Source of the DNA: Candidatus Izemoplasmatales bacterium
GTDB lineage: Bacteria; Bacillota_I; Bacilli_A; Izemoplasmatales; Hujiaoplasmataceae
Reading direction: 5' to 3'
Assembly: GCA_050949045.1 (NCBI GenBank)
Contig: JBMNEZ010000001.1
Span: 416,001-480,000 of the forward strand
DNA length: 64,000 nt
Below, piece by piece: positions 2,212 to 30,747 of this stretch; the first letter of the stretch is position 1, and every line of letters begins with the position of its first letter. The translations under genes were made by a program, and so were the position numbers. The notes under the pieces are model-generated. The model was not told the origin of the DNA. It ran no database searches and was given only the letters and a program-made list of their open reading frames with translations.

Positions 2212-2214
2212 AAG

Positions 2215-3648
2215 ATGAAGAAAGGAATCGCCATCATCCTAATGCTAATAGCCGGTTTTGGTCTTTTTGCCTGCGACAGTGTCACCTCGACGACAGTGAC
2301 GACCACCGCTTCGATCACGACCATTCCAGACTCGACTAGTGCGACCACTATGGACGCGCCTTTGGTGATGGAATTCGATTTCGATCTTCCAAGCGATGTC
2401 TCGACCTCTTCTTTGTCTTTGACTGATTTCATCATTATTTCCGGTCATAACCTCACATCAGCCGACTATGAGGTTGATCTTGAAAGAGGAGTACTGACTT
2501 TCAAGAAAGAATATCTTGCCTATCTAAATCCTGGCATCTACACCTATACCTTGCATCGCAGTGATACTGAAGAAAAGTTCAATTTGAATATCATCGATAG
2601 AAACCAACAATACCGCCTCGTCAACGAGGGCTTTGAGACCGGTGACCTCTTTGGCTGGGAACCTCAGACCATCTTCAAGGGCGAAAGCAACCTGCTCGCC
2701 TTTGATGACGGTGTCGTTGTCGAAAACGGCATGATAACCGGCAGTGAAACCGCCTATGGCGCGGAAGGCGAATATCTGGTGGGGATCGATAGCGGGATCG
2801 CCCTTAGTTTGTTTGAAGAACGGATGGGCAAATTGAGATCAACGACCTTCATCCTTGGGGGTTCCGGCTACATCACCTTCCGCCTTGGAGGCGGCGGGAA
2901 TCCGGCTCTTGGTTATTTGTCGGTTCGAAACAGCATGGATGATACCGAAGTCGCGCGCTTCTATCCGGAAATAGCCGCGACGCATCCGGCCGAGCTGATT
3001 CTCTACAAGGCGGATCTCAGCGAAGCGATCGGAGAAAGGCTCTATCTCGAACTAATTGATCTTTACGGTCATGAGGGGGATTATCTGACTTTCGATGACT
3101 TCCAAGTCTACCATCAGAGCATTCCTGAGGAAGGGATGCTAGCGACCAGCATCCTGCCTACATTTGCGGTCGCATACGTTCCCAACCAACTTCCAAACGG
3201 CAACTTTGAAAACGGACTTGAAGGCTGGATCGAGGTGTATGGCGAAGCCTTCAGAGTAGAAAATAACACCCTGAAAAGCAATCAAGGCGGCGATGAGGCC
3301 GTCGGCGTCATCCGCTCCTCGTTATTCAGAGTCGATGGCAGCGGTATCGCGAGCGTCACCATCTCTGCCGCCCAGGGAGCCCGTTATGACAAAGACACTT
3401 TCATCTCGGTCAAAGAAGCAAGCACCAATCGAGAGATCCTGCGTTTTGCGAACCGCAACCATGACGGGATCTTCCCGGTCACCTATTATCTCGATCTTGG
3501 CGAATATCTGGGGAAGAATCTCTATTTTGAGATCGTTGATAATGCCAAAGGCAGTTACGATACGATCTTCGTAAGCGATATCGTCACCTATTATCAGGAA
3601 AGACCTGATTTTACCTACAAGGATCTTGCCTTGAATCTCAACGAATAG
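2215..3648 (+). CDS. Lipoprotein with X2/Ig-like domain and tandem CBM-like module
   Basis: Lipobox LFAC, Thr-rich linker, 'NEGFETGDLFGW' and 'NGNFENGLEGW' domain starts. Confidence 0.75.
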   Translation: MKKGIAIILMLIAGFGLFACDSVTSTTVTTTASITTIPDSTSATTMDAPLVMEFDFDLPSDVSTSSLSLTDFIIISGHNLTSADYEVDLERGVLTFKKEYLAYLNPGIYTYTLHRSDTEEKFNLNIIDRNQQYRLVNEGFETGDLFGWEPQTIFKGESNLLAFDDGVVVENGMITGSETAYGAEGEYLVGIDSGIALSLFEERMGKLRSTTFILGGSGYITFRLGGGGNPALGYLSVRNSMDDTEVARFYPEIAATHPAELILYKADLSEAIGERLYLELIDLYGHEGDYLTFDDFQVYHQSIPEEGMLATSILPTFAVAYVPNQLPNGNFENGLEGWIEVYGEAFRVENNTLKSNQGGDEAVGVIRSSLFRVDGSGIASVTISAAQGARYDKDTFISVKEASTNREILRFANRNHDGIFPVTYYLDLGEYLGKNLYFEIVDNAKGSYDTIFVSDIVTYYQERPDFTYKDLALNLNE

Positions 3649-3651
3649 GAT

Positions 3652-9117: not shown

Positions 9118-9157
9118 ATCAGTTCATGAACAAATAATTGTCAAGGAGGAAAACCCG

Positions 9158-11665: not shown

Positions 11666-14163
11666 AAAAGCTGATTCTTTTGATTCTGACCATTATTCTC
11701 ACTTTTGCGCTCCTGCCCTTTTATTCAAGTGTGAGAGCGGAAGCGCCCCTCAGGGAGTATGGAGCCGATCTCGCCTTTAAAAGGCGCGTCGTCTCGAGTC
11801 CGAATACCGATCAAAACCTCAACATCAATGCCGTTGACAACGATCCTTCAAGCCGCTATGCGGCCGTGAAGGATGATTCTGCCTTTTTCTATGTCGATCT
11901 CGGATCAGTGGAGAAGATTGGCAAGGTCGTAATCGCTTTCGAAGCGGCCTATGCCAAAAAGTATCTGCTTCAACTGTCAAACGATGCCTTGACGTGGACG
12001 ACGGTGGCGACGGTGACCAATACCAAGGCGACGGTGAATGAAATCATCTTCCCCGAGTACCTTGAAGCCAAGTTTGTCCGTTTTCAGGGCGTTGAAAGGG
12101 GCATGGTTGATTATGGCTATTCATTCTGGAGTTTCGAGGTCTATGGACCCAAAAACCTGGCAGTGGGGGCCAATGTCGTCTTTGTTTCCTCAAATGAAAA
12201 CGAAGTCGAACTGAACAAAAGCTGTCTGACCGACGGCCTTGCCCACACGAGGTGGGCATCCGGCGTCGCTGATGGCCAGCATGTGATCATCGACCTTCTT
12301 GAAGCCAAGACTTTCGATCTCATCAAGATCCGCTGGGAAGTCTCCTTTGCAAGACGGTTTGCCATTTATGGCTACGAGGGAACACCTGATGGCGCTTATC
12401 CCGAAAGAGACGATGCTTCCTGGTTTGAAATCGAGAGATCGGATGTCGGTCTTGGCGAAGTCGATACTTTCAAACTTGATGGTGATCAGACCACAAGATT
12501 CATCAAACTCGAACTGATCCAAAGGGAAACGAACGAAGTGACGAAGAAGACCGGACGTTTTCCCTGGGAATCGACCTTCTCGATTTATGAATTCGAAATC
12601 TATGACTGGGATGCCATCCACGCAGCTCCTCTGGGCAGCGTCATGGAATTTTCCAAAGCCGCTCCCGCCTGGACGGCGATGGCCAACATAACCTTGAATG
12701 AAAGCGGGTTATTGCTGGCGCCGATCGGTTATCCCATTGAAGCCGATGGCAAGGTGACCGACCTTGCGAGCATCGCCAGTGGCGACATTCCCGGTTTTGA
12801 ATCTTATGCTGTTTATAATCCCGCCGTCATTTATGATGATGAAAGGGAAATGTTTCATATGATCTACCGAGCGGAACTCCCCGATAACTTCCATCACTAT
12901 TTCGGGGAGAAATATCCGCTTGGCCATATGTCCAGCCTGGCTTATGCTTTTTCCTTCGACGGCATCAACTGGGAAAGAGGAGCCGAAAATCCGATCGCCT
13001 GGGCGACATCCGCCGATGAAAAAGGCGGCGGCCTTGAGGATCCCAGGATGTTCAAAATCGAAAATGACCCTAATCGGGGGGGACTGACAACCTACTACAT
13101 CACCTACACGATGTATGACAACAACATGACTCGTGAGGGCATCATCTACACCCATGATTTTGTGACTTTCACCAAGGTCGGCAGACTCGCTCCCGATTAT
13201 CCAAACAACAACAAATCAGGAACCTACGTGACAGACCCCGAAGGGAATGCCGTGCTGATCAATGACCCAAGGCCGGGCAAGACCGGCAAGGTCTACATGA
13301 TCTACATGAAAGACGGAGGTTACACGAGAATCGGCTTCACGACCGATGTCATCAGGATCGAAGCCGAAGACATCATCGATATCGACACTTCAGGGTTTGG
13401 TTCAAACCATATCGAAGCCCTGACCAAGGGCAATGAGTCGTGCATGGCCTTGACCAATATCTATGGAGAAGAAGATCAAGATATTTATCTGATGTATGGC
13501 GGCGGCGTCCTGAGCGATCCGGAAATCAAGAACCAACAACCAAACGCCAGCGGCTGGTTTTATGCCTTGGGCGTTCTCAAAACGACCAAAGCGAATCCGT
13601 TTGAACTCACCCATTTCGATTATGATCTTAATGAACCCTCGATGTATCCCACCGATACGAACAAAATCGATTACGGCCTCTTCGACAAGTGCATGTTCGC
13701 CGATTCGCTGATCCGCCATGACAATCAATGGTATCTCTACTACGGAGCTGGCGACATGTATGTGGGAGCCGCCCTTGCAAGAGCGGATTTCACCGCCCCC
13801 AGCGCCACCTATGAACTCGAAGGCACCACTTTGATCGCAAGCACCACCGCTCTAAACAAGAAATACAAAGACGAGATGACGCCGCTGCTTGTCGAATTCG
13901 CGGTTGACGTCTACAACCTTGACGGCACCTTGCTCGACACGGTTGTGAAGAGTTATGAGATCGAGCACTTCACCATCTCGCCAATTGGCATTTACGAACA
14001 AGGCACCGAAATCACGGTAGCGGTCGATTTAACAAAGATCAGCGCGCTGGAAACGGATTACTATGTCATCGGTTACATCCGCGATCAACTTACAAAAGAA
14101 CGGCTGAACAATCCTTCAAGTTATCTGCACGTCACACCGATCATCATTTATCCTGAAGGTTAG
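11662..14163 (+). CDS. Secreted protein with two F5/8-type-C (CBM32-like) domains and a GH130-like beta-propeller domain
   Basis: Signal peptide ending VRA-E; discoidin motifs 'AVDNDPSSRY..VDLG..FEAAYA..', 'TDG..TRWAS'; GH130-like 'VYNPAV', 'GLEDPR', 'YYITYT', 'LYYGAGD'. Confidence 0.75.
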   Translation: MKKLILLILTIILTFALLPFYSSVRAEAPLREYGADLAFKRRVVSSPNTDQNLNINAVDNDPSSRYAAVKDDSAFFYVDLGSVEKIGKVVIAFEAAYAKKYLLQLSNDALTWTTVATVTNTKATVNEIIFPEYLEAKFVRFQGVERGMVDYGYSFWSFEVYGPKNLAVGANVVFVSSNENEVELNKSCLTDGLAHTRWASGVADGQHVIIDLLEAKTFDLIKIRWEVSFARRFAIYGYEGTPDGAYPERDDASWFEIERSDVGLGEVDTFKLDGDQTTRFIKLELIQRETNEVTKKTGRFPWESTFSIYEFEIYDWDAIHAAPLGSVMEFSKAAPAWTAMANITLNESGLLLAPIGYPIEADGKVTDLASIASGDIPGFESYAVYNPAVIYDDEREMFHMIYRAELPDNFHHYFGEKYPLGHMSSLAYAFSFDGINWERGAENPIAWATSADEKGGGLEDPRMFKIENDPNRGGLTTYYITYTMYDNNMTREGIIYTHDFVTFTKVGRLAPDYPNNNKSGTYVTDPEGNAVLINDPRPGKTGKVYMIYMKDGGYTRIGFTTDVIRIEAEDIIDIDTSGFGSNHIEALTKGNESCMALTNIYGEEDQDIYLMYGGGVLSDPEIKNQQPNASGWFYALGVLKTTKANPFELTHFDYDLNEPSMYPTDTNKIDYGLFDKCMFADSLIRHDNQWYLYYGAGDMYVGAALARADFTAPSATYELEGTTLIASTTALNKKYKDEMTPLLVEFAVDVYNLDGTLLDTVVKSYEIEHFTISPIGIYEQGTEITVAVDLTKISALETDYYVIGYIRDQLTKERLNNPSSYLHVTPIIIYPEG

Positions 14164-14171
14164 GAGGAATC

Positions 14172-16292
14172 ATGATGAAAAAATACTATCTGCTCTTCCT
14201 CCTTATTCTCTTGACTGCTCTTGGCGGCTGTCAAGAGGAAACGACTCTGCCCACAACCCTGCCGGTCACAACTGCCTCAACCACCACTCTGTTGGCGCTT
14301 GAGGCGCCCGGCAATCTTGTTTTGGCCGACAGGACTCTGAGCTGGGGCGAGGTGCCGGGGGCGAATGAGTACATCGTCAGGATCGACGGCAGGGAAACAA
14401 ACGTTTCGACAAACTCCTACCTTATCCCGGAATCCGTTTACGGCAAACTCTCGATCAGTGTCAAGGCCAAAGCCGGGACAGTGGAATCACCGTTTTCAAA
14501 TCCGATACTGAGAACGATCTACTATGTGTTGTCACAGCCGGAAAATATAGCCCAGAACGGCACCTTGATCACCTGGGATGAAGTTCTATGTGCGAGCGGC
14601 TATGTCATCAAGGTGAACGGTGTCGAGATCGTCCTTGAAGACAATGAATACAATATCGATATCGCCACCTCTAAAACGATCAATGTGAGAGCGATCTGTC
14701 CCTCTGATTCCTATATCATCAATAGCGATTTCACTGTTGATTTTGTGACCAAGACCAGACTGCAAACGCCCTCGGGCATCCGCTATGAAGAAGGCAGGCT
14801 GGTTTGGGATGCGGTCGCAAACGCTGATGGTTACCGGCTGACGATCGGGGCTTCCAGTTACCAGGTCGCGATCAATGTTTTTACCGATGTTTCGGCTTAT
14901 CGCGGAGAAGAAACAGTCACTGTGACAGCCAAGAACACTCTGGGGCTGTATCTTGATTCGATTGCGGCTTCAGCGATCATCGATTTTCCGATCCAGAGAC
15001 TTCCAAAAGTGACCGGCATAGAAGTCTCTGGAAACAATTTGAGGTTTGAGGGAAGCGCCGGCGCCACCGTTTATGATATCTACTATGGCGGGAACTACTT
15101 TGCGACGATCACGGAAACAACCTACCTCATACCCCCCTCGATCATGGCTGATCCAGACAGCTATCTCCAAGTCGTTGCCAAAGCCGATGGCTTCCATGAT
15201 TCGCCTCTGAGCGAGAAGGTCTTCGTCAACTATGAACTGATCTCGACCGAAGCGGAACTGATCGCCATGACCGCCGGCGGGCACTATGTTCTCGCAAACG
15301 ATATCGCGCTTACTGCGCCCTGGATTCCGCTTGATTTCTCAGGAAGCTTAAACGGCAACGATTTCGAGATTTCAAACATCGTTATCAGCGACGCATACCA
15401 GAACACCGGTTTGTTCGGCGTCTTGAATGAAGCGACGATCACCAATCTCAACCTGAACGGCGACATCAATTTCATCAGCGGTTTGTTTGCGGTCAATGTC
15501 GGTTCTCTCGCAGGAACGATCACAAGTTCAGAGATCGCCAATGTCAGCGCCAGATTCACGATCAACGCAGCTTCCCATAACGGAGTGGGAACAGTTGGCG
15601 GCCTGGTCGGCCTGCTTGAAAACACCAATCTCTATCGAAGCCATTTTGCGGGCGAAATAACAACCGCCAATATGACCACCGGCGGCCTCATCGGCAAGGC
15701 CCAGAACCCACTCGCATCCTCATCAGTCCACCAGTCAAGCGTTACAGCCGCCATCTTTAGTTCGGGCGGCCTTGAGAGCCCGGCGGGCGGTTTCATCGGC
15801 GTCATGAACAACAATTATCTTTCAATCAGCGAAGCTATGGCGAGGGTTGAAGTGGTCGGCGCAAACACCGTCGGCGGTTTTGTCGGCCGACTGGACTTTG
15901 GACATATCAGCGACAGTTACGCTATCGGAACCGTGGAAGCGACAAACACCGAATTTGTGAGCCTCGGCGGCTTCATCGGCATGCTTGTGGGCTACAACGC
16001 GACCGTCGTCAATATCTTGTCGGCTGTCGATGTCGTTGATCCTTTGGGCAACATTGAAGTCTACGCGGGCGGCTTCACGGGACTTACACCCGGAGGCAGT
16101 TACGCTCTCATGTATGACAATTGTCACTACCAAAGCCTGGCAAATCCGATTGACCGGATCGGCAACGCCGAAACCGGCAGAGGCGATGGCATCGCCCTGC
16201 TTGTCGGCTTAGAAGACATTTCCGGCTTCAGCCCATCAATCTGGGATTTTGGGACATTCTTCAAGTTAGTATGGGAAAAAGAAGCAGACTAA
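14172..16292 (+). CDS. Lipoprotein with FN3-like repeats and GLUG-type beta-helical region
   Basis: Lipobox LGGC, Thr linker; repeated 'P.N/G......WD.V..A.GY'; 'GHYVLANDI', 'GLFG', multiple 'VGG[LF][VI]G' repeats. Confidence 0.75.
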   Translation: MMKKYYLLFLLILLTALGGCQEETTLPTTLPVTTASTTTLLALEAPGNLVLADRTLSWGEVPGANEYIVRIDGRETNVSTNSYLIPESVYGKLSISVKAKAGTVESPFSNPILRTIYYVLSQPENIAQNGTLITWDEVLCASGYVIKVNGVEIVLEDNEYNIDIATSKTINVRAICPSDSYIINSDFTVDFVTKTRLQTPSGIRYEEGRLVWDAVANADGYRLTIGASSYQVAINVFTDVSAYRGEETVTVTAKNTLGLYLDSIAASAIIDFPIQRLPKVTGIEVSGNNLRFEGSAGATVYDIYYGGNYFATITETTYLIPPSIMADPDSYLQVVAKADGFHDSPLSEKVFVNYELISTEAELIAMTAGGHYVLANDIALTAPWIPLDFSGSLNGNDFEISNIVISDAYQNTGLFGVLNEATITNLNLNGDINFISGLFAVNVGSLAGTITSSEIANVSARFTINAASHNGVGTVGGLVGLLENTNLYRSHFAGEITTANMTTGGLIGKAQNPLASSSVHQSSVTAAIFSSGGLESPAGGFIGVMNNNYLSISEAMARVEVVGANTVGGFVGRLDFGHISDSYAIGTVEATNTEFVSLGGFIGMLVGYNATVVNILSAVDVVDPLGNIEVYAGGFTGLTPGGSYALMYDNCHYQSLANPIDRIGNAETGRGDGIALLVGLEDISGFSPSIWDFGTFFKLVWEKEAD

Positions 16293-16451: not shown

Positions 16452-16583
16452 ATGAAAGAAAAACAGACAAAAAAACAATATGAAAGGCCGATGCTTGAAG
16501 TGATCGAATTTGACCTCGAAGACAGCATCGCGACGAGCATGGATTTCGGCCCTTCGACGATTTGCGGTGAGCAGACATGGTAA
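16452..16583 (+). CDS. Putative RiPP precursor peptide A1 (43 aa: MKEKQTKKQYERPMLEVIEFDLEDSIATSMDFGPSTICGEQTW)
   Basis: Translated by hand; RBS AAAGGAG upstream; YxxP leader motif; paralog at 23101 with an identical 21-aa segment differing only by synonymous changes; stop overlaps ATG of next gene. Confidence 0.88.
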   Translation: MKEKQTKKQYERPMLEVIEFDLEDSIATSMDFGPSTICGEQTW

Positions 16584-19057
16584 ACATCAAAAAGGCTTTG
16601 GCCTGTTTTCTCGTCGTGACGCTGTCACTCTTGACGGTGGCCTTTCTTGCGAAAGAAACGACCATCAAGGCAACAGGGGGACAACAAACAGCTGAAAGCG
16701 TGGAATTGACCCTCGTGAGCTACTTTGACCAGGAAAACACGATCACATCCGTGTTTGAGATTCCCGAGGAGGGAACGCGGTGGTTTGATGAGTCGACAGA
16801 CAAGCTCCATGTCTATACTTCTGGAGCCTGGGACGCGGGAACAGCTGTCCCCGTTGTCGCCCCTGAGATGCCATCAACCGGCGACATGTGGTTTGACGAG
16901 GCAAAGAACACGCTCTACACTTACCTGGCTGAAGGTTGGGATGCCGGCGAGGTACTGCCGACCGCGGAACCCGATCTCAAGTATGGACAGAAACTGTCGT
17001 TAAACAGCAGTTTGGCATCAATGCCGGGATATTCATTTCTCTTTTGGGAAGTGAACGGATCGATTCGTCATGATTATGCTATCGATCACGTGTTCACTCT
17101 AACCAAAACAAATGTCATCAAGGCTGTTTTCAGCCCTTCTGACAGGCACGCGGTGGTTTTTGTGGATGCCAACAGTGAGATCCTTAAAGTCGAGTATGTC
17201 GCAGATAACGGAACTGCCACCCCGCCGGAGACCCTACCATCAAAACCGGGATATTCAACCAACGGGTGGGATGTCAGTTATGAAAATGTCACCGATGATG
17301 TCGTGACGGTGTTGCAGTATACTGCCACAGACACGACTGAGTATCTGGTTACGGTCGAAAACGGCACCGGCGATGGCAGTTATGCTTATAACACTGTTGC
17401 GACCGTTACTGCGGACGTCCCTTCACAAGGAAATTATTTTCATCATTGGTCGGTCGGCGACGAGATCGTCAGTTATCAATCGACTTACAAGTTTTCTGTC
17501 TATGGTGCGACAACGATAACCGCAGTTTATGAGGGTTCAGCGCCTTCCGACAATCCCTACGTGGTGCTCGGGGATGATCTGGCGATCAGATCCGGCTCAA
17601 AAACCTATGTCGGTCAGTTCTATGTTCCAACCGGCTACACATTGATCGAATACGGGATCTTGACATCGATCAGCGAAGCGGAAATCAATCTCGACACCAT
17701 TAGGACAACAAGGTATCCTGGCTATAAGTACAATGCGGCCACCAAAGAATTCGTGATGAGTTTTGAAGAAAACGAAATCACCGCCGCCAGGGCTTATTTG
17801 ATTTGTAGTGATTCGGAAGATGCTATCCACACTTATTACAGCGGCCATAGATACTCGTCTTCCATCTATCAAGTCAAGAATGGCGGATTTGAGTTTGAAG
17901 ACGGCGCCATAACCGGTAGTCTCGATGGCTGGTATGGATACAACATTTGGAAGAACGAAAAGGGAATGCAATCATTCCTTCGTTGGGACGATGGGAATGG
18001 AAAATTTGTCAATCTTGATGACCGCGTCGTGAACACAACGTATTTTGACAATCATCCTTATAACAGAGATGGCAGTTACAATCTCGGGATCACATGGCCG
18101 GGAGGCAGTTGGGATCAAACATCAGAAAGAATGGGACATCTCCGTTCATCTAATTTCACGCTTGGCGGAAGCGGATGGATCAGTTTCAAACTCGGGGGAG
18201 GCAAGTCTAGCTCTTTCGCTTTCGTATCCGTTAGAAGAGCTTCGGATAACTATGAGGTCGCCCGTTTTGGAAACAAGAACTACAACAATACTGCAATCGC
18301 GTCGGCACAATACGGTTCGGCCATAACCAATGCGGAAGCATTCTTATTCCAATACTACTATGACTTAAGCGAATATTTGGGCACAGAATTGTATTTCCTC
18401 ATCACAGAATCATCATCAAAAGAATGGTGTATTCTCTCAGCCGACTCATTCGTGACCTACTATCCAATAGCGCCCTCAACTGATTCGGATACCTTAGCCA
18501 CAAATATCCTGCCAACGATTTACAATGCCGGATCCTCAACGAACCAGTTGGCAAACAACCTTAATGGCAATGTTAATAATTGGGGGAACCCAAATAATGT
18601 GTTCCGTTGGGATGATGGGGCAGGAAGAACTAATGCTATTAGTGGAGATAACGATTTGGGAGTCGCCCGTTCATCAGCGTTTAATATCAATGGGCCCAAC
18701 ACCTATCTATGGTGGCAGTGGGAAGGCAATATCAGTCAAGACAAACAATTGTTCATATCCATCAAAGAGGTCGGGACAAACATTGAAGTTTTGCGATTGG
18801 TAAGAAGAGACAACTTGTCAGGAAAAACAGGTGGTGGATTTGACAATCACTGGTTTGATCTCAGCGGGCTTGATGCCGGCAAGGAGTACTATGTTGAACT
18901 ATGTGACAATTTGACCATTGGTTGGGGCTTGATCAGTATCAAAGATATTTATCTGGCACAGAATAATCAAAGCGACAAGGTTGGGTCGGCTCAACCAAAT
19001 GACGTGGCGGTTTCAATCTCAGGAATTGAAACCGAGTTTGCTTACGAGGAACCTTGA
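16577..19057 (+). CDS. Secreted multidomain protein: shared N-terminal 'YFD' region plus C-terminal tandem CBM-like module
   Basis: Signal peptide; N-terminal region aligns by eye with 23242 and 25825 proteins; C-terminal half aligns with the module in the 3652 protein (ERMG.LRS.NFTL.GSG.ISFKLGGGK). Confidence 0.8.
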   Translation: MVNIKKALACFLVVTLSLLTVAFLAKETTIKATGGQQTAESVELTLVSYFDQENTITSVFEIPEEGTRWFDESTDKLHVYTSGAWDAGTAVPVVAPEMPSTGDMWFDEAKNTLYTYLAEGWDAGEVLPTAEPDLKYGQKLSLNSSLASMPGYSFLFWEVNGSIRHDYAIDHVFTLTKTNVIKAVFSPSDRHAVVFVDANSEILKVEYVADNGTATPPETLPSKPGYSTNGWDVSYENVTDDVVTVLQYTATDTTEYLVTVENGTGDGSYAYNTVATVTADVPSQGNYFHHWSVGDEIVSYQSTYKFSVYGATTITAVYEGSAPSDNPYVVLGDDLAIRSGSKTYVGQFYVPTGYTLIEYGILTSISEAEINLDTIRTTRYPGYKYNAATKEFVMSFEENEITAARAYLICSDSEDAIHTYYSGHRYSSSIYQVKNGGFEFEDGAITGSLDGWYGYNIWKNEKGMQSFLRWDDGNGKFVNLDDRVVNTTYFDNHPYNRDGSYNLGITWPGGSWDQTSERMGHLRSSNFTLGGSGWISFKLGGGKSSSFAFVSVRRASDNYEVARFGNKNYNNTAIASAQYGSAITNAEAFLFQYYYDLSEYLGTELYFLITESSSKEWCILSADSFVTYYPIAPSTDSDTLATNILPTIYNAGSSTNQLANNLNGNVNNWGNPNNVFRWDDGAGRTNAISGDNDLGVARSSAFNINGPNTYLWWQWEGNISQDKQLFISIKEVGTNIEVLRLVRRDNLSGKTGGGFDNHWFDLSGLDAGKEYYVELCDNLTIGWGLISIKDIYLAQNNQSDKVGSAQPNDVAVSISGIETEFAYEEP

Positions 19058-19079
19058 TTTTTTTACTTGCCGTGATTCA

Positions 19080-19112
19080 AAACCCCCGATGACACGCCGT
19101 TGTCGGGGGTTT
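19080..19112 (+). terminator. Intrinsic terminator-like hairpin
   Basis: AAACCCCCGATGAC-loop-GTTGTCGGGGGTTT inverted repeat after the 16577 gene. Confidence 0.7.
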
Positions 19113-19179
19113 CATAATGGTTGAGGGAAATTCAAGCAAATGATGCTAGCTCAGATGTTTTATGATAAAATACAAATAG

Positions 19180-20187
19180 GTGATCTCATTGACTGACTAT
19201 CAAGGCTTAAAATCTAAAATCATCAGACTGGGAGCGCTTCAAAGAGTCCCGGTTCTTGGCGAGTTTGAACTGACCTCGAAATGTAATTTCGCCTGTCCCA
19301 TGTGTTATGTCAAAGACAATAAGCCAAAAAGCGAGCTGGCCAAGGAAGAGTGGATCTCGATCTTTGAAGAAGCGGTTGTCGAAGGATTGGTCTACGCCCT
19401 TTTGACCGGAGGGGAGCCCCTCACAAGGAGCGACTTTGTGGAACTGTATGAGTTCCTCTATGACTATGGAGTCAAGATAACGGTTTATACAAACGGCTAT
19501 CATTTAACCAAAGAACAGCTTGAGGCCTTCACGAACAGGCCCCCGGAGATGGTTGCCATCACTCTTTACGGCGCAAGTGACGATACCTATAACATCGTGA
19601 CGGGCATCAAGGATGGCTATACAAAAGTAACAGAAAACATCCTCAAACTGAAAAAAAGCAAGATCAACATCGCCTGCCGGGTAATTCCGATTCCCGAGGT
19701 CTACGCCGATCTTGATGATATCTTGAAGTTTATCAAAGAAAATAACATTCCCCTAGGGTATTTCCTCTATCTAGCTCCGTCGAAGAAAAAGGATTACCAC
19801 GGAAGATTATCTCCCGAGCAATTAGTTGATTTCGAGCAGCGGCTTCTTACTTTCAAAGGAAAGCAAAAACCCTCCAAGGATTTTGATACTTTATCGAGTT
19901 GCGCCGCTCTTAAGAGCGGCTATGCGGTGAACCACCGAGGATATATGCAACCATGTACTTTGATGGCTCATCCAAGAAAGAAACTGGAACGCGGGACATT
20001 TCTCACAACCTTTCGGGAACTAAGTGATAAATGGCAGAATCTTGAGAAGTCCCATGACTGTGAGTCCTGTGATTTAAGCTCATCATGCATTCCCTGCCCC
20101 GCCAGAAGATATTATGAAGGCGATCCTCACAAGTGTGCTCCCTACCTCCTTGAAATCGCCAAGGAAAGGAAAAAACGAAATGACTGA
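19180..20187 (+). CDS. Radical SAM protein with SPASM domain (peptide maturase type)
   Basis: CNFACPMC (CxxxCxxC), LTGGEP, YTNG; SPASM Cys set C..GYMQPC..CESCDLSSSCIPC..C; true start may be TTG 19189 after AGGTGA. Confidence 0.92.
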   Translation: MISLTDYQGLKSKIIRLGALQRVPVLGEFELTSKCNFACPMCYVKDNKPKSELAKEEWISIFEEAVVEGLVYALLTGGEPLTRSDFVELYEFLYDYGVKITVYTNGYHLTKEQLEAFTNRPPEMVAITLYGASDDTYNIVTGIKDGYTKVTENILKLKKSKINIACRVIPIPEVYADLDDILKFIKENNIPLGYFLYLAPSKKKDYHGRLSPEQLVDFEQRLLTFKGKQKPSKDFDTLSSCAALKSGYAVNHRGYMQPCTLMAHPRKKLERGTFLTTFRELSDKWQNLEKSHDCESCDLSSSCIPCPARRYYEGDPHKCAPYLLEIAKERKKRND

Positions 20188-21031
20188 CACCTATAAGATC
20201 GGTAATGTTTGTCTTAGATTTAAGTATATCTACGACAAATATTTTGCATCGAGGATACGTTCATACAAAAGCGATGAATCACCTGAATATCAAATGCGGG
20301 TTGTTATTAAGAAAGATTTGATGTTTCCCGAAGGAAAACCGAAATATAGATTTCAAGACCGTCAGATTTATGAAGATGGACAAAAAGGAGTCATTGTCAA
20401 ACATGATGACAAAAACAATATTACCCACCTAATCACCTATTCGCTCGATTTCAAGGATATTCTAATCGAGCTGTCGGAGTCATTGGGATCAAGATTGGCC
20501 GAAGTGGAATACAAAATCAGCGGAATGATGTTTTTCGAGATTGCGATCAGGAATGGTTTGATCCCGATTCACGCCTCAGCTATCGGCTACCAAGACGAAG
20601 CTATCCTTTTCTGTGGTTCCTCCGGAACCGGCAAATCGACTCAGGCGGAGCTTTGGAAACAAAATCTTGACGAGGTGATCTTCATCAACGACGACAAGCC
20701 TTTGCTTTATGAGGCCGGCGACGGACTCTATGTCACTGGCTCGCCTTGGTCGGGAAAGACATCAAGGAATGAAAACGTCAAAATGAAGGTGAAAGCGATC
20801 GTCTTCATCAAGCAAGCCCCCCACAACAATCTCATTTCTCTCACTGTCTATGACAAGATAACCAACTTCTTAAGAAACATCTATCGACCGAGGGAAGAGG
20901 CCAAGATCGAGAATGTGCTGGAACTGATCGAAAAGATGATCTCTGATCTTCCGGTTTACAAATATTATTGCACAAAAGAGAATGATTCTTTCGAATACTT
21001 GTATCAGGCACTTTATAGAAGGGATTACTGA
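20180..21031 (+). CDS. HPr-kinase-like P-loop kinase (RiPP-associated type)
   Basis: 'IHASAI..EAILFCGSSGTGKST', 'INDD', 'GSPWSGK'; start re-called at ATG 20180. Confidence 0.8.
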   Translation: MTDTYKIGNVCLRFKYIYDKYFASRIRSYKSDESPEYQMRVVIKKDLMFPEGKPKYRFQDRQIYEDGQKGVIVKHDDKNNITHLITYSLDFKDILIELSESLGSRLAEVEYKISGMMFFEIAIRNGLIPIHASAIGYQDEAILFCGSSGTGKSTQAELWKQNLDEVIFINDDKPLLYEAGDGLYVTGSPWSGKTSRNENVKMKVKAIVFIKQAPHNNLISLTVYDKITNFLRNIYRPREEAKIENVLELIEKMISDLPVYKYYCTKENDSFEYLYQALYRRDY

Positions 21032-21033
21032 AG

Positions 21034-21306
21034 ATGAAACTGAAAGCAAACTATGTTTTAAGAGAAGTCGCGGGCGAGAATATCGTCATCCCTGTCGACA
21101 GCGAGGCCATCAACTTCAACGGCATCATGACGCTCAATGAAACCGGTAAGTTTTTGTGGAACCAGTTGAAACAAGAGGTGTCGGTCGAAAGCTTGATTGC
21201 GTCCATCGTCGATAACTACGAAGTCGACAGAAACACCGCCGCCCAAGACGTGACGGCATTTATTGAAAAGCTTAGAAAACACAATGTTCTTGAAGATGGC
21301 AAGTAA
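21034..21306 (+). CDS. PqqD-family stand-alone RiPP recognition element (RRE)
   Basis: 90 aa; 'LREVAGENIVIP', 'LNETGKFLW', 'YEVDRNTAAQDVTAFIEKL'. Confidence 0.92.
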   Translation: MKLKANYVLREVAGENIVIPVDSEAINFNGIMTLNETGKFLWNQLKQEVSVESLIASIVDNYEVDRNTAAQDVTAFIEKLRKHNVLEDGK

Positions 21307-21745
21307 GAAAGAGACAAAAAACGGCATCTTGCCGCTGATCGAGGAACAACTGCTTCTCGGCAAACAAGTGGCCTTTAAAGTCAAGGGAACAAGCATGTTC
21401 CCGTTTTTGCATTCGGGAAGAACCGAAGTCACGCTCCATAAGCCAACCGTCGAACCGAAAAAATACGACATCGTCCTTTTCAAAACAAAAGACCACTATG
21501 TTTTGCACCGGATCATCAAGCGTCGCCGCGATGTTTACATCGTCATGGGCGACGCTTTAAAGAAAAAAGATTATGTCAAGATCGACCAAATCATCGGTGT
21601 CGTCAAAGAGATCAAAGTCGATGGCAAACCGGTCGACATCCATGAGAAGAAATACAAGCGTAAAGTCAGATGCTGGGTCGCTTTCCGGGCCGCCAGGAGA
21701 TTCCTCCTCTACTACTTGAGGCGTTCACAGAAGGATATAAAATGA
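21296..21745 (+). CDS. S24/S26-family peptidase (candidate leader peptidase)
   Basis: 'VKGTSMFPFL' catalytic Ser box, 'DIVLF', 'VLHRII', 'MGDA'; no N-terminal TM anchor. Confidence 0.8.
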   Translation: MASKKETKNGILPLIEEQLLLGKQVAFKVKGTSMFPFLHSGRTEVTLHKPTVEPKKYDIVLFKTKDHYVLHRIIKRRRDVYIVMGDALKKKDYVKIDQIIGVVKEIKVDGKPVDIHEKKYKRKVRCWVAFRAARRFLLYYLRRSQKDIK

Positions 21746-22935
21746 GCATCCTCTACGATCAATTGATCTTTATCAGCAAATGCGCCCTGAACAACCTTGA
21801 ATACGAAGAGGCCATCGACAACATCAAAGAACTGTTTCGTCTTGCCCGGGAAAACGGCCTGTCGGGGCTCTTTTACGCCGTTTTGAAAAACAACCAGTCA
21901 GTCATTGATGAACAGCGATTGCTTCTCAAAGAGTACTATCTCTACCAAGCAAAAGACATAATTCAAAAGCAGGCGATTGCGGAGATCACCTCTTTTTTCA
22001 ACCATGCCCGGATCGATCATATCTATCTCAAGGGCTCGGCCATCAAGAAACACTATCTTGAGAGCTATATGCGCTCGATGGGCGATATCGATCTTATCAT
22101 TAAGCCGGAAGATTTAGAGCGTTCACGAATGATTTTAAAATCAGCCAACTATAAACTCGACATTGAAGGCTCGACTCATGACGTCTATTTCAAAGGCAGG
22201 GACATCATAGTTGAGGTCCATCCCGGAGTCGACCATCACCTTGATTCGGATCATTTAACCGCTTTGGGCGACGTCTTCGCCGACGGTCTTCCCATCAGCG
22301 GATGTTTATTCGAGTTATCTCCCGAAAAAGAACTTGTCTATCTTTTATCCCATCTCAAGAAGCACTTTCTTTCATCGGGTGTCGGCTTGCGTCAAGTCCT
22401 TGATATCGGCGTCTTTTTAGACAAGATGGAAGCCAAAATCGATAACGAAAAGTTATTTGACCTTCTCAAAACTGCTAATCTTACAAACTTTGCAAAGAAC
22501 ATGATCTCCTTCAATAAGCAAGCCTTCGGCTTCCGGATTGGAGAATTTATCCTGTCCGGATACCGGATGGCGGATGCTCTCTTTGAAGAAACCAAAGCAT
22601 ATGTCATCGGTTCTGGAGTCCATGGGACCGCTAGGGATTTCAATCGCAGTGTTCCGGTGCTTACGAAACATTCACTCAAGACCGGTAAGACTAGAGGCAG
22701 CAAGATTCGTTATTTGATCCGTATTCTTTTCCCCAAGCGGATCGATCTGATGTCAACTGAGAAGTATCTGAAAAAACATGGTTGGCTGTTGCCGTACGCC
22801 TGGATCAAAAGGTGGATCAGGCTTGTTTTCAAGAAAACAAGAAGAAGCATCGCCAAACTGAAAGCTTTGGATGCGGTTGACAAAGAAATGCTTCAGAGTA
22901 ATCTTGATCTATATCGTAAACTAGGTATTAACTAA
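21742..22935 (+). CDS. Nucleotidyltransferase family protein (NTP_transf_5-like)
   Basis: 'IYLKG', 'RSMGDIDLII', 'VEVH', 'H..KH....GVGLRQVLD'; start re-called at ATG 21742 (ATGA-like junction). Confidence 0.85.
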   Translation: MSILYDQLIFISKCALNNLEYEEAIDNIKELFRLARENGLSGLFYAVLKNNQSVIDEQRLLLKEYYLYQAKDIIQKQAIAEITSFFNHARIDHIYLKGSAIKKHYLESYMRSMGDIDLIIKPEDLERSRMILKSANYKLDIEGSTHDVYFKGRDIIVEVHPGVDHHLDSDHLTALGDVFADGLPISGCLFELSPEKELVYLLSHLKKHFLSSGVGLRQVLDIGVFLDKMEAKIDNEKLFDLLKTANLTNFAKNMISFNKQAFGFRIGEFILSGYRMADALFEETKAYVIGSGVHGTARDFNRSVPVLTKHSLKTGKTRGSKIRYLIRILFPKRIDLMSTEKYLKKHGWLLPYAWIKRWIRLVFKKTRRSIAKLKALDAVDKEMLQSNLDLYRKLGIN

Positions 22936-23100
22936 AGAATGCGCACGCATCGTATATAGTAAACAATAGGTGGTATTCCGAATATTATACATACAGATTT
23001 ATCATTAATTGTTTTATCAATATGGGCAATATGATAAAATATCTGTGGTATGCGCTTGATCGATACATAATATTTTTCTTGAAGGAGATGACGTTTAAAA

Positions 23101-23235
23101 ATGAAACAAGTCAATGACAAGAAATCGCAATATGTGAAGCCCGACATCGAAGTGATTGAATTCTCGCTTGAAGACAGCATCGCCACCAGCATGGATTTTG
23201 GCCCGTCGACAATCTGCGGCGAGCAAACGTTTTAG
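23101..23235 (+). CDS. Putative RiPP precursor peptide A2 (44 aa: MKQVNDKKSQYVKPDIEVIEFSLEDSIATSMDFGPSTICGEQTF)
   Basis: Translated by hand; AAGGAG upstream; YxxP leader; paralog of 16452 peptide; stop codon TAG is embedded in the RBS (TAGGAGGT) of the next gene. Confidence 0.88.
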   Translation: MKQVNDKKSQYVKPDIEVIEFSLEDSIATSMDFGPSTICGEQTF

Positions 23236-23241
23236 GAGGTA

Positions 23242-25683
23242 ATGATGATGAAAAAGGGATTTATTTTTTGCTTGTTGTCGCTTTTCCTGTTCGCTTTGCC
23301 GGTAAGGTATGTTAAAGCTGAATCAATGGCAAATGTCGATGTTCAAGTAAAAGCCTATTTTGATGAATATAACATTCTAACAACAAACGTAAATGACCAG
23401 CCATACGCCAGCAAAATATCTGCCTCTCTTCATATCCCTGAAGCCCCAGAAGGATATTCTTCATATCAGTTCTTCTGTTGGGTTGTCAATGGGGTTGTCA
23501 GGCAAGACCTTCCAGCTGATTATGAGTTTTTTGTTAGAAACACGACCGTTCTTACAGCCATCTACAGGCCGTCTGACAGACATGCGGTTCTTTTCATGGA
23601 CTCCAACGGAACTGCAATAAAAGTTGATTATGTCAGTAATGGTGAAGATGCAACACCGCCGGATGTATCAAGTTATTCCAAACCGGGGATGGTCGTCTCA
23701 TCAACCAGTCCTTGGGGCGAAGTAAGTCTAACCAACATCACAGAAAACAAAATCGCGTATCTCGAGTATGATTTTGATACTTCGGAAACCTTTAATGTCA
23801 CAGTTGTGAACGGTAGCGGCAGCAATGAAGCGGCGTCATACGGATCAGTATTGACTGCTGTCGCCAATGCTCCCGAAGGAGATTTGGAATTCTTTCATTG
23901 GACCGATGAAAACGGCAAAATTGTAAGTCATAAACCATCATACTCATTCACGGCCTACAAAGACACAACGATTACCGCGGTTTATGAAAACATGCCGTCG
24001 GTTGATATTCCGTATGTTGTGATAAGTGATCTGTTGTTGCTGAGAGATGGCAAAAGCACATTCATTGGTCAGTTCAACATTCCCGATGGATATACTATGG
24101 TTGAATATGGATTTCTTGCAGCTAATACTCAATTTGATTTTAAACTCGATACCGAAGGTGTCATTAAATACCAATCGGAAAAATCAAATGCGCAAACTAA
24201 CGAGTATATGATTAGTTTTCCATTTGTAAATGGGCAATCCGTCAAAGGTTACATTGTTGTTAAAAACGCCTTAACCGGTTTATTAGAATACCATTATAGC
24301 AGTACTGAGAAAATTTCTTTCTTGATGATCAGCGAATATGGAGAAGGTTCGAGCTACAACAAATGGATTGAAATTTATAATCCAACCGATGAAATCGTCG
24401 CGCTTTCTGATTATAGGGTTGAACTTTATGTCAATGGCGCTACCACAGCAAGTAATCCGCTATCATTTACTACTGAATCGATTTTTCCTGGAGATGTCTA
24501 TGTTATTGCTCACCCTGATTCAAACGCAGATATTCTAAGTCAATCGGATGTTACCAGCGAAGTAACTAATTTCAATGGAGACGATGCGGTTGCATTGCTG
24601 AAAAATTATGTTGTGATCGATGTCATTGGTGTTATTGGAACTGATCCAGGAACAAAATGGGATGTAGGAGAAGGATCCACTCTTGATCATACACTGGTAA
24701 GGAAACCAAGTACGGATTATTATCCGAATGGTGCTTGGAAACCTTCGGATTGGGATGTCTATGATTGTGATTACATAGGCAATCTTGGATATCACGAAGA
24801 TGTAGAACCCTTGTCAATTTCGATTATCGGTGCTACTGAAGTGATGAAAGATGCATCTCTACCACTAGCAGTAATGTATAACCCGATCAATTCGATAAGG
24901 GGAGTCGAATGGGAAAGCAGCAACACTTCGATTGCCACGGTTAATAGTAATGGACTTGTGACTGGGGTTGACGTGGGAGAGGTTACTATTACTGCCAGGT
25001 CCGCACTCAATGGAACTATTTTAGATACACATCCAGTTACGGTTACTTCACCTGTCTATTATTCTGTCAGTGCATCATCTTCTGACGAATTAAAAGGTTC
25101 AGTCAGCGCGAGCCCAACTTCGGTTTTATCTGGCGGCTCTTCGACAATCACAATTTCGCCAGCAACAGGATATCAAGCCTCAACAATCACAATTAATAGC
25201 GAAGAACCTATTGATATTACTGGACAGACATCATATTTGATTGAAAACATCTTTGAAAATAAGACGGTTGTAGTAAATTTTGTTGAAGGTATTACGGAAT
25301 TAGTGTTCTCAAAGACTCTTACTGGTACAACAGGTAATCCCCCTTCAGGGTGGACCTATAGTGGCTTAGGTAGTGCATATAAAGACGGCTCACTAAAAAT
25401 GGATACCACTGGCGACTATATTATTTCTGAATCGTTTGCTCTTCAAACATCGGCAATTTTGTATATTGAATTGAAAGGCAACGGTTTTTCTGGAGGTAGT
25501 ATTAGTTTCTACGATCAAGAAAATAACCTTCTCAAGACTTTTTCAACTGAAATCGAAAATTTGCAAAAAACACTATCATTTACCATTTCAGATACTTCGG
25601 TTACTTCTGTAAAATTTGTATATAATAAATCAAGCGGAAATGTTGGAATATACTCAGTTGAGTTAAAACACATAGTTGACTAA
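23242..25683 (+). CDS. Secreted protein: shared N-terminal 'YFD' region, lamin-tail domain (LTD), Ig-like group 2 domain
   Basis: Signal peptide VKA-E; LTD 'ISEYGEGSSYNKWIEIYN..FNGDDAVAL..IDVIG'; Big_2 'WESSNTSIATVNSNGLVTGV..GEVTITA'. Confidence 0.8.
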   Translation: MMMKKGFIFCLLSLFLFALPVRYVKAESMANVDVQVKAYFDEYNILTTNVNDQPYASKISASLHIPEAPEGYSSYQFFCWVVNGVVRQDLPADYEFFVRNTTVLTAIYRPSDRHAVLFMDSNGTAIKVDYVSNGEDATPPDVSSYSKPGMVVSSTSPWGEVSLTNITENKIAYLEYDFDTSETFNVTVVNGSGSNEAASYGSVLTAVANAPEGDLEFFHWTDENGKIVSHKPSYSFTAYKDTTITAVYENMPSVDIPYVVISDLLLLRDGKSTFIGQFNIPDGYTMVEYGFLAANTQFDFKLDTEGVIKYQSEKSNAQTNEYMISFPFVNGQSVKGYIVVKNALTGLLEYHYSSTEKISFLMISEYGEGSSYNKWIEIYNPTDEIVALSDYRVELYVNGATTASNPLSFTTESIFPGDVYVIAHPDSNADILSQSDVTSEVTNFNGDDAVALLKNYVVIDVIGVIGTDPGTKWDVGEGSTLDHTLVRKPSTDYYPNGAWKPSDWDVYDCDYIGNLGYHEDVEPLSISIIGATEVMKDASLPLAVMYNPINSIRGVEWESSNTSIATVNSNGLVTGVDVGEVTITARSALNGTILDTHPVTVTSPVYYSVSASSSDELKGSVSASPTSVLSGGSSTITISPATGYQASTITINSEEPIDITGQTSYLIENIFENKTVVVNFVEGITELVFSKTLTGTTGNPPSGWTYSGLGSAYKDGSLKMDTTGDYIISESFALQTSAILYIELKGNGFSGGSISFYDQENNLLKTFSTEIENLQKTLSFTISDTSVTSVKFVYNKSSGNVGIYSVELKHIVD

Positions 25684-25703
25684 ATAAAAATACCATTTAC
25701 ATT

Positions 25704-25726
25704 AGGGCGCCAATCATCGGCGCTCT
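25704..25726 (+). terminator. Hairpin, possible terminator
   Basis: AGGGCGCC-loop-GGCGCTCT after the 23242 gene; weak U-tract. Confidence 0.45.
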
Positions 25727-25824
25727 GTTATTCACTAGGTGTAATGTCATAGTATGTACATAATACAATTATTATATTCACATCGTGATGAGCTATACTA
25801 TATAATTTTTTATTAGGAGATTAC

Positions 25825-30038
<4,214 letters not shown>

Positions 30039-30039
<1 letters not shown>

Positions 30040-30701
30040 TGAAGAAGAAAATACTGATCATTTTGTTTCTGGTTCTCGGTGTCACGCTGTTTGGATGCAA
30101 GGGTGAAACGACTGTCACGACCACAAAAGCCCCGCAGATAAGGACAACCACCGCCTTTTTGATCGTGAACACCCTCGAATATTCCTATGACAAGGTCTCG
30201 GACAGCGATCTCGAGATCAACCTTTCTTCGCAGTCGGCTACGATTACCGAACTCCAAACCGAATCGGGAACATCCTTTTCGAGTGAATGGGTCACCTACA
30301 CGGAAGGCAAGGCTCTGATCAATTCACGTTATCTTGAAGGCTTGCCGCTCGAGACAAATCGCTTCCTGATAGAGACTTCGGCCGGCCTCTTCGAACTGAG
30401 GATCACGATCAGCGATACCCGCAAACCCGAGATCATCGGCTCCCTATCCGTCAATTACCAGATGGATGTCGATCTAGTCTTCGAGTATGAAGCTTATGCG
30501 GGATCGTTCCAGATGATCTCGGGAAATGACATCACCAGCGATGATTACACATTTGATGGGTATACCTTCACGATCGATTTCGACTACATCCATGGCAAAT
30601 TCACAGAAAACCCCGAACGGAACGCTTTAATTCTCCAGGTGTTTTTCAATTATCCCGAAGGCGTCGTCTTTAGTTATATCTTCATCTACAAACCCGAATA
30701 A
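30039..30701 (+). CDS. Small lipoprotein with X2/Ig-like domains
   Basis: Lipobox LFGC, Thr linker, 'INSRYLEGL','DDYTFDGYTFTI' resembling repeats of the 3652 protein. Confidence 0.7.
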
Positions 30702-30715
30702 TTAATTCTCATAAC

Positions 30716-30747
30716 GGGGCCGTCAATGATTGACGGCCCCTTTTTTT
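30716..30747 (+). terminator. Rho-independent terminator
   Basis: GGGGCCGTCAA-tga-TTGACGGCCCC followed by T7. Confidence 0.9.

Follow-up and report, generated by a model that had tools for sequence, protein, structure and literature searches.

The window analyzed in the current work is a stretch of 64,000 nucleotides (nt) from a Candidatus Izemoplasmatales bacterium of the family Hujiaoplasmataceae (GenBank assembly GCA_050949045.1, contig JBMNEZ010000001.1, positions 416,001 to 480,000 of the forward strand), whose genome is represented by one contig of 1.36 Mb; all coordinates given below are those of the window. It contains a locus for a putative peptide that is synthesized on ribosomes and modified after translation (RiPP), in which each of two precursor genes (A1 and A2) is placed directly ahead of a gene encoding a large secreted protein (Y1 and Y2, respectively), and it is this pairing of peptide and secreted protein with which we are concerned here. 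The gene order is A1, Y1, a hairpin, five tightly packed maturase genes, A2, Y2, a nuclease gene (Y3) and a lipoprotein gene, as follows:

16452..16583, + strand: precursor A1, 43 amino acids (YxxP leader, nearly invariant Ser, core ending in CGEQTW), with the ribosome-binding site (RBS) AAGGAGA upstream
16577..19057, + strand: Y1, secreted, 826 amino acids (signal peptide; shared module at residues ~121-423; C-terminal domains of no known family, common to upstream lipoproteins)
17519..17845, + strand: D4 of Y1, an Fn3-like domain without a Pfam family
19080..19112, + strand: hairpin after Y1 that closes the A1-Y1 unit (14 bp, weak U tail)
19189..20187, + strand: radical SAM/SPASM enzyme (TTG start likely, open reading frame (ORF) from 19180; CxxxCxxC and seven invariant C-terminal Cys residues)
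20180..21031, + strand: HprK-like kinase, ScmC-like (TIGR04249, E 1e-7, below cut-off; HAS, Walker A and NDD motifs)
21034..21306, + strand: PqqD-type leader-binding protein, or RiPP recognition element (RRE) (PF05402, E 1e-17)
21296..21745, + strand: soluble S24/S26 (SpI-like) leader peptidase (TIGR02228, E 2e-7, below cut-off; Ser, His and Asp present)
21742..22935, + strand: NTP_transf_5 nucleotidyltransferase (PF14907, E 3e-42)
23101..23235, + strand: precursor A2, 44 amino acids (core as in A1 except for the last residue)
23242..25683, + strand: Y2, secreted, 813 amino acids (module at residues ~32-355; D4 at 23974-24306; LTD, Big_2)
25825..30039, + strand: Y3, secreted nuclease, 1404 amino acids (module, with D4 at 26524-26850; two LTD, Big_3, metallo-beta-lactamase fold, endonuclease I)
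30039..30701, + strand: lipoprotein, 220 amino acids (candidate partner in the membrane; its conserved C-terminal domain is found together with the system)

Junctions between precursor and secreted-protein genes

A1 and A2 are the only precursor genes in the whole source genome. Both junctions described in an earlier interpretation made from the sequence alone (the sequence-only reading) were recovered: A1 ends in ATGGTAA and thereby shares 7 nt with the start of the Y1 gene, while the TAG stop of A2 forms part of TAGGAGGT, the RBS of the Y2 gene, 6 nt ahead of its ATG. The hairpin which that reading had placed between the first unit and the enzymes is likewise supported by its folding energy (-25 kcal/mol, z -3.9), 0 of 200 shuffled sequences being equally stable, and the terminator scan gave no call at this position. 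Considering that 314 of 653 co-oriented neighbors in the source genome (48%, a count based on crude ORF calls) start at -14 to +15 relative to the upstream stop, such spacing is by itself not special. Peptide and module genes of the order fall within the same limits in 54 of 56 pairs, the misses being one pair at +18 and one frameshifted gene, and we infer that the two are translationally coupled. The further claim that the precursors are not coupled to the maturases holds for this locus and does not extend to genus g12, in which the peptide gene lies ~17 nt behind that of the nucleotidyltransferase (L036, L073 and L136; L and G numbers denote loci and genomes). In an alignment of 56 precursors, Tyr and Pro of the leader are invariant and the Ser is conserved in at least 90%, an Ile being retained as well.

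The peptide-module pair is conserved within the order

A peptide profile search over all 158 genomes of the order returned 57 places, comprising one false match, one frameshifted pseudogene and 55 intact genes; with the false match dropped, homologs occur in 42 genomes. As many as 54 of the 55 intact genes are located directly ahead of a signal-peptide gene of the type that carries the so-called ‘YFD’ region, 48 of these preceding a match to the module profile and the other six a gene cut by the contig end, so that the N-terminus of the partner alone is visible. Counted per genome, 40 of the 158 contain both peptide and module, two the peptide only, five the module only and 111 neither; among the 62 near-complete genomes, 20 contain both, G150 has the module only, and G099 has a peptide with the start of its partner at the contig end. 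The unit of peptide and secreted YFD-region protein that the sequence-only reading had recognized as repeated is thus conserved and duplicated, and neither partner usually occurs without the other. It is also relocated: peptide-module units detached from the maturase cassette are present at L031, L033, L035, L038, L072 and L137.

When the 78 module genes are taken as the starting point, 48 possess their own peptide gene, 14 are second in tandem (as is Y3, which has the same shared region without its own peptide gene), one follows a broken peptide gene, two lie at contig ends and 13 stand alone, L133 and L086 having been reclassified by hand. The majority of genomes are fragmented, and related genomes are not independent. 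Dropped from the counts were G135 (a peptide match with an internal stop, E 2e-4), G045, G086 and G088 (module matches in repeats only), L250 (a duplicate of L187) and L218 (a false match), and the module search left out G098:C88, G015:C37, G103:C1 and 10 weak repeat-only matches.

Several individual loci were recorded alongside these counts. At L086, upstream of position 1849 (G077:C121), a frameshifted peptide gene remains ahead of the module gene, and two genomes of family f7 have module genes interrupted by frameshifts or stops (L178:8282-11044, L180:9053-10547). Three peptide-bearing genomes have a peptide-less module paralog between the GH125-like and GH130 genes of a glycan operon (L120:8543, L121:5027, L122:5683). 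Two maturase cassettes occupy one locus in G042 (L089:1879-9015), one of them with radical SAM enzyme and kinase in a single reading frame, and a similarly joined ORF is found at L247 (G047).

The shared module and its D4 domain

The shared YFD region consists of three B-repeat-like domains followed by the Fn3-like domain D4. An AlphaFold2 model of the Y2 region has a predicted local distance difference test (pLDDT) score of 90.7, with D4 at ~90. In structural alignments, 84-99 residues of D4 match Fn3/Ig domains that are complete (root-mean-square deviation 2.5-3.3; best Z a middling 8.5, over 84 residues at 2.5), from which D4 is predicted to be a complete Fn3-like sandwich in the absence of the peptide. 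Conserved residues of D4 are Arg16, Gln25, Glu36, Lys62, Glu69 and Tyr85, in the numbering of the module comparison. None of 54 D4 members matched a Pfam family, fold searches returned generic Ig/Fn3 matches only, the ESM Atlas gave unnamed clusters only (recognition falling below its threshold), and B-repeats were the sole matches in a plasmid search. A joint alignment of peptide and D4 was dropped, since it misplaced D4 strands onto the peptide.

The module is nearly always at a protein terminus, this being the N-terminus in Izemoplasmatales and the C-terminus in a number of very large proteins. The clusters of the latter bear the names Ruminococcus sp., R. flavefaciens and Clostridium pascui; profile comparison shows D4 to be homologous to this Clostridial C-terminal domain (98.5%, E 3e-15). 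The cargo attached to the module varies freely (endonuclease I, metallo-beta-lactamase fold, LTD, leucine-rich repeats (LRR), B-repeat arrays, GLUG), the cargo domains being mutually unrelated. In agreement with the sequence-only reading, which had noted cleavable-looking signal peptides and neither a lipobox nor a C-terminal anchor in the proteins paired with A1 and A2, Y1, Y2 and Y3 each have a signal peptide, no lipobox and no later hydrophobic segment. In Y1, two short W-F-D-E...LY(T/V)Y...WD.G repeats are inserted in the first module domain (16715-16950), and L029 has further copies of this repeat together with a second insert.

Pairing in other families and in Clostridia-like contigs

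In a phylum-wide sample of 399 genomes (G176 and G219 being left out of D4 scoring) D4 was found in 22, including three families that belong to other orders of the class. In these families, 18 of 23 module genes are accompanied by a peptide gene of their own, and G179 combines four scattered units with a single cassette. Scanning of metagenomes with the Clostridial D4 returned 17 loci of tentatively assigned taxonomy, among which L206 and L207, and likewise L208 and L210, are near-duplicates. The peptide gene is directly downstream at all 11 of these Clostridia-like loci that have an intact D4 gene, and maturase genes are located further along the same contig in most. Since the peptide gene is upstream for the N-terminal module and downstream for the C-terminal D4, it keeps to whichever end of its neighbor codes for the module, and its side changes with module position.

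One sequence, P0044 (from one contig), contains module and peptide-like tail in a single reading frame, a fusion which may reflect a lost stop or a sequence error; at L203 the peptide and module ORFs are in frame and separated by one stop. When the C-terminal 295 residues of P0044 were folded, the domains were mostly at pLDDT >90 and the tail was at 37-63 and undocked, this tail being unmodified, atypical and devoid of aligned relatives, and the prediction lacking a control fold.

Among the outlying loci, a peptide-less D4 remnant of 76 amino acids recurs in gut metagenome contigs among mobile-looking genes (L211-L215, not counted above). In G201 (L248:4294-15966) the exporter gene is in two pieces, D4 is weak, no nucleotidyltransferase gene is nearby and the peptide was not found; this system is apparently decaying. 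Genes resembling those for polysaccharide synthesis, as judged from their sequences, flank the cassette at L206:13306-19344, L208:7888-11460 and L238:2839-7926.

A second peptide class, with a YxxP leader and a core ending in DWWFEG or similar, occurs beside secreted proteins with another recurring domain, marked by the motif GASIR (L230:5615-15306, L231:4997-13931 and L232:5827-11739, in G223, G296 and G179, respectively). These loci carry their own kinase and S24 genes, and the GHL10 hydrolases encoded there bear the GASIR domain. In G030 (L242:173-2064), a member of a family in which the module search found none, a peptide is placed directly ahead of a secreted protein with a C-terminal GASIR-like domain and adjoins a full set of kinase, PqqD, S24 and nucleotidyltransferase genes. 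In a profile comparison based on eight shallow rows, the GASIR domain did not match D4 (0.3%).

The maturation enzymes resemble those of linear polyphosphorylated peptides

The maturases match the linear polyphosphorylated peptide (LPP) family, described for the cluster lppA-K-B-S-D-N (Popov et al. 2026, PMC13381572). In that study LppK phosphorylates core Ser3, LppS removes the leader with the help of the RRE (leader hydrolysis being its only demonstrated activity) and LppN displayed no visible activity or substrate; the clusters are located in capsule loci, and the biological role of LPPs and paeninodins is stated there as unknown. Shared with LPP are an RRE encoded on its own, a kinase resembling HprK, a soluble SpI-like peptidase with Ser, His and Asp (invariant in 8/8 aligned sequences, LppS itself being outside the alignment), an NTP transferase, and a YxxP leader with a conserved Ser 18-19 residues later. 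The best match of PqqD in the PDB is the paeninodin-type RRE 9x90 (E 1e-6), and no match to LppB (9x8z) was obtained at E 0.01.

The locus departs from LPP in its radical SAM/SPASM enzyme and core Cys, in its lack of an exporter that is present in clusters of sister lineages, in peptide genes that adjoin D4-module genes, and in its leader, which reads ExIEFxLExSIAxS instead of VLxHQxIxFETxxS; relative to the complete motif YxxPxVLxHQxIxFETxxS, the precursors keep Tyr and Pro and mostly the Ser, differ in the middle and have a Tyr-to-Ser spacing of 19 rather than 18. No lasso cyclase is present, as expected of a linear peptide, but the radical SAM/SPASM enzyme may introduce a crosslink. The Cys is conserved in all of the best 120 peptide homologs listed, and the radical SAM gene is present in 26 of 33 genomes with Cys peptides versus three of nine without; it was found in 0/5 near-complete genomes of other families, all Cys-less, by a scan that had no positive control. 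Lineages without this gene have an exporter and Cys-less cores, and so fit LPP well. Because of the radical SAM gene and Cys, the missing exporter and the partial association of enzyme with Cys, the present locus is better regarded as an LPP-like variant than as a strict member.

The MsbA-like exporter is absent from the locus, and its best match in the genome is merely 27-36% identical. The LPP exporter is encoded in 0 of 70 genomes of the family of the source genome versus 14 of 77 in the sister family, and is part of the cassette in other families and at the Clostridia-like locus L204.

One core for divergent modules

Within genomes, the cores of paired peptides have a mean identity of 0.86 (13 pairs, of which 10 are at 0.94-1.0 and three near 0.47), whereas the modules that they accompany average 0.36; between genomes the mean core identity is 0.41. 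The sequence-only reading had matched each peptide to its neighboring protein, and of this the conserved unit stands while strict one-to-one pairing is weakened, since cores are homogenized within a genome where modules diverge and many modules lack a peptide gene of their own. Because one core serves divergent modules, and because genomes with peptides also contain module genes that are second in tandem or alone, the comparison favors a shared tag whose dose is set by the number of gene copies, rather than a ligand, strand or cofactor private to one partner.

Surface retention and candidate membrane partners

The Izemoplasmatales are a wall-less order. They are known for many extracellular nucleases (PMC8289736). 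Retention through an uncleaved signal peptide, as might follow from a missing signal peptidase I, was rejected, as a normal signal peptidase I is present in the source genome. The domain of the 220-residue lipoprotein is found in 38 of 158 genomes, 33 of which are module-positive, and in 18 of 21 near-complete peptide-positive genomes. At five Clostridia-like loci the peptide gene is followed by one for an SLH protein (L204 by Pfam, L205 by likeness) or for a protein with a C-terminal hydrophobic tail (L208-L210); a domain common to the lipoprotein and the SLH partners was unsupported, no homology being detectable. A lipobox is present in the module protein of G471 (97% complete), a genome in which neither the peptide nor PqqD was found. 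Given that the nucleotidyltransferase of pseudomycoidin adds a hexose to phosphoserine (PMC8498205), a glycan or lipid adduct is, by analogy, a plausible alternative hold.

Proposed function and its alternatives

We propose, with a probability of about 0.45, that the phosphorylated and further decorated peptide serves as a shared surface docking tag for the D4-module proteins. A functional partnership between peptide and module proteins is very probable in itself; that the latter bind the peptide directly is predicted with slightly better than even odds, and that the peptide tethers them to the surface with odds a little short of even. Among the roles that the sequence-only reading had offered (ligand, structural strand, cofactor or surface tether), ligand or surface tether appears to be the best inference. 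An anchor is supported because the module is nearly always terminal with variable cargo, as for anchoring domains, and because the signal peptides could in principle be cleaved, while a different anchor was not seen.

The chemistry, export, binding and tethering that we infer would proceed as follows. By homology to LPP, PqqD would bind the YxxP leader and the kinase would phosphorylate the conserved Ser (Ser30 of A2), the S26 peptidase would cut the leader after Ile27 if this Ser is position 3 of the core (or, alternatively, after Asp25), and the nucleotidyltransferase would attach a group to the phosphate, while in the source lineage the radical SAM enzyme would probably make a Cys thioether. 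The product would be one tag, species-wide. Signal-peptide proteins whose cargo is interchangeable (nucleases, LRR and B-repeat arrays, unnamed domains) would bind it extracellularly through their terminal module, and there most likely through D4. With the tag fixed to the cell, either through the co-occurring lipoprotein or through a lipid/glycan adduct, the cargo would be kept at the surface, and a peptide gene copy beside each major module gene would allow tag supply to scale with cargo synthesis. More broadly, and more tentatively, LPP-type RiPPs could be the ligand of an unrecognized Bacillota surface-display system, in which a phosphorylated peptide, decorated by the nucleotidyltransferase and fixed to the envelope through a lipoprotein, a lipid or a wall or capsule polymer, would serve for anchoring and not as a toxin or signal, whether or not the cells have a wall, and secreted proteins would be recruited to it through an Fn3-like domain and perhaps a second domain family.

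A number of observations weigh against such a docking tag. The non-independence of related genomes means that the adjacency counts overstate the number of events; the one exception among the 55 intact peptides, in G137, is followed by a terminator-like hairpin; 27 of the 78 module genes (the 14 second in tandem and the 13 alone) are without their own peptide gene; L124 has a C-terminal module with a peptide on neither side; and in G048 and G150 (89-90% complete, fragmented) module genes are present and peptide, PqqD and nucleotidyltransferase were not found. Three genomes with the radical SAM gene have Cys-less peptides only, and the LPP exporter that would carry the peptide out was found neither in the source genome nor in any of the 70 genomes of its family. 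The lipobox-bearing module protein comes from a single genome, and the Clostridia-like loci gave no match to the lipoprotein domain. Finally, cores differ widely between lineages, and in some Clostridia-like loci the core beyond the Ser is just 6-10 residues, leaving little sequence for a domain to read.

The lack of an exporter in the source family would also suit an intracellular or translocon chaperone or sorting escort for the module, in which case the peptide would not be a lasting surface part; co-translation would bring both products together in one place, and one generic core does serve divergent modules. We consider this rather unlikely, given the exporter in cassettes of the sister family, of other families and of L204, and a module that is predicted to fold well unaided. 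Genome-specific and homogenized cores are equally what self-recognition signals display, and LPP clusters lie in capsule loci (PMC13381572), a setting resembled by L206, L208 and L238 to judge from gene sequences only; the peptide might thus be a diffusible signal or an intercellular adhesion tag that module proteins capture, or with which they are merely co-regulated, without tethering to their own cell. A signal, however, has no need of its own gene next to every cargo gene, or of one that switches side with the domain, and the annotation lists, without a profile search, showed no conspicuous two-component or regulator gene in the neighborhood of the peptide; this explanation is unlikely.

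Alternatively, the peptidase or nucleotidyltransferase might join the core or its attached group covalently to the module protein, for which the peptide would be a modification tag encoded in trans. This would agree with the natural in-frame fusion P0044, with the in-frame ORFs of L203 and with a LppN that is inactive without an unknown partner (PMC13381572); it is quite improbable, as LppS was shown in that study only to hydrolyze the leader, the enzymes are cytoplasmic while the module is Sec-exported, and P0044 is a solitary sequence open to the reservations given above. Similarly improbable is the absence of any functional link, the small gene hitchhiking as the promoter-proximal part of a duplicated unit in a mobile island: the commonness of tight spacing, the patchy distribution (42/158), the lone module genes and the decaying cassette of G201 would allow for it, but the adjacency is kept across two classes and reversed with domain position, and peptides that are 94-100% identical in 10 of 13 pairs beside modules at 36% point to selection or gene conversion acting on the peptide. 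A structural strand or catalytic cofactor of the cognate neighbor, after the manner of QhpC in quinohemoprotein amine dehydrogenase, has a precedent in that radical-SAM-crosslinked, exported RiPP subunit (PMC7876137) and draws on the conserved Cys; a D4 predicted to be complete on its own weakens the strand, mutually unrelated cargoes weaken the cofactor, and both Cys and radical SAM gene are missing in other lineages, which makes this role very improbable.

Transcription signals and neighboring genes

Besides the hairpin after Y1, the following signals were noted:

23032-23040, + strand: extended -10-like TGATAAAAT ahead of A2, by eye
25703..25727, + strand: hairpin after Y2 (9 bp, z -3.8)
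25777..25806, + strand: promoter-like site before Y3 (TTCACA-18-TATAAT, 11/12 match)
30716..30740, + strand: intrinsic terminator ending the Y3-lipoprotein unit (terminator scan and fold test)

Promoter-like sites ahead of the maturases and of A2 were recognized by eye only. A1 and Y1 are bridged by RNA-library contigs from three studies, a weak hint of a joint transcript; contigs end at 19066 and 19086 (two studies), and one extends to 19154. Maturases and Y3 are covered patchily by these contigs, which are unfit for ranking expression. Contig X3 has an additional A in the A-run of A1 (16468-16476), which would shift its frame, and contig X2 a C to G change at 16476; these differences could be due to assembly error, strain difference or slippage. 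Upstream of the locus (401-16292) is a glycan-use cluster encoding an ABC permease, DUF1861, a phosphoesterase lipoprotein of 1821 amino acids, GH125, GH130 and a GLUG lipoprotein, and one unnamed domain is common to Y1, the GH125 lipoprotein and the 1821-residue protein.

Comparison with known systems

No description of the peptide-D4 pairing was found in the literature covered, which did not extend to subscription journals or bioRxiv supplements, or in the LPP paper: PMC13381572 does not use the terms secreted, surface, InlB or radical SAM in its main text, and Flg_new, InlB and Izemoplasma are absent from six of its supplements. Phosphorylated and phosphoglycosylated lasso peptides (paeninodin, pseudomycoidin; PMC8498205) share an HPr-kinase homolog acting on Ser and an RRE with a YxxP leader, and the pseudomycoidin type also a nucleotidyltransferase, the lasso-system enzyme adding a hexose to the phosphate. 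The Ser is internal here, in contrast to the C-terminal Ser of lasso peptides, and a family scan of the cassette genes detected neither a lasso macrolactam synthase nor a B2 cysteine peptidase. The SynChlorMet cassette (ScmC, ScmD, ScmE, ScmF) likewise brings together radical SAM/SPASM, PqqD and kinase-like genes, and all of its models scored far below cut-off (ScmE 73 of 400 bits, ScmC 32 of 125). The genes do bear the hallmark of the ranthipeptide/QhpC type (SPASM radical SAM enzyme, RRE, core Cys), for which a Cys-to-Asp/Glu thioether would be the predicted bond.

Terminal surface-anchoring domains with wall carbohydrate or protein ligands are familiar from the SLH, choline-binding and dockerin systems. 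If the tether is real, it would represent a surface-anchoring route additional to sortase, lipobox, SLH and dockerin, would explain how Izemoplasmatales might retain extracellular nucleases on the cell, and would provide a function for the unannotated terminal domain of large Ruminococcus and Clostridium proteins. For LPP-type peptides, the present work offers a candidate partner in the form of an unnamed domain, the gene for which has that of the peptide beside it across two classes.

The closest parallels for such a system come from two directions. CBM37 of Ruminococcus albus (PMC4081043) is a terminal domain on many unrelated secreted enzymes with a proposed role in non-covalent cell retention, a likeness drawn from its description, and in place of a RiPP its ligands are wall carbohydrates or proteins. 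The QhpC gamma subunit (matured with QhpD, QhpE and QhpF; PMC7876137) is a radical-SAM thioether RiPP whose leader is removed and which is ABC-exported and assembled with large secreted proteins encoded alongside; it differs in being the cofactor-bearing subunit of one enzyme, whereas here the cargo is variable, the core is ~17 amino acids and kinase and nucleotidyltransferase steps are added. By analogy, the system may function in the way that CBM37 and similar anchoring modules do, LPP chemistry supplying the tag and QhpC being the precedent for a RiPP that joins secreted proteins.

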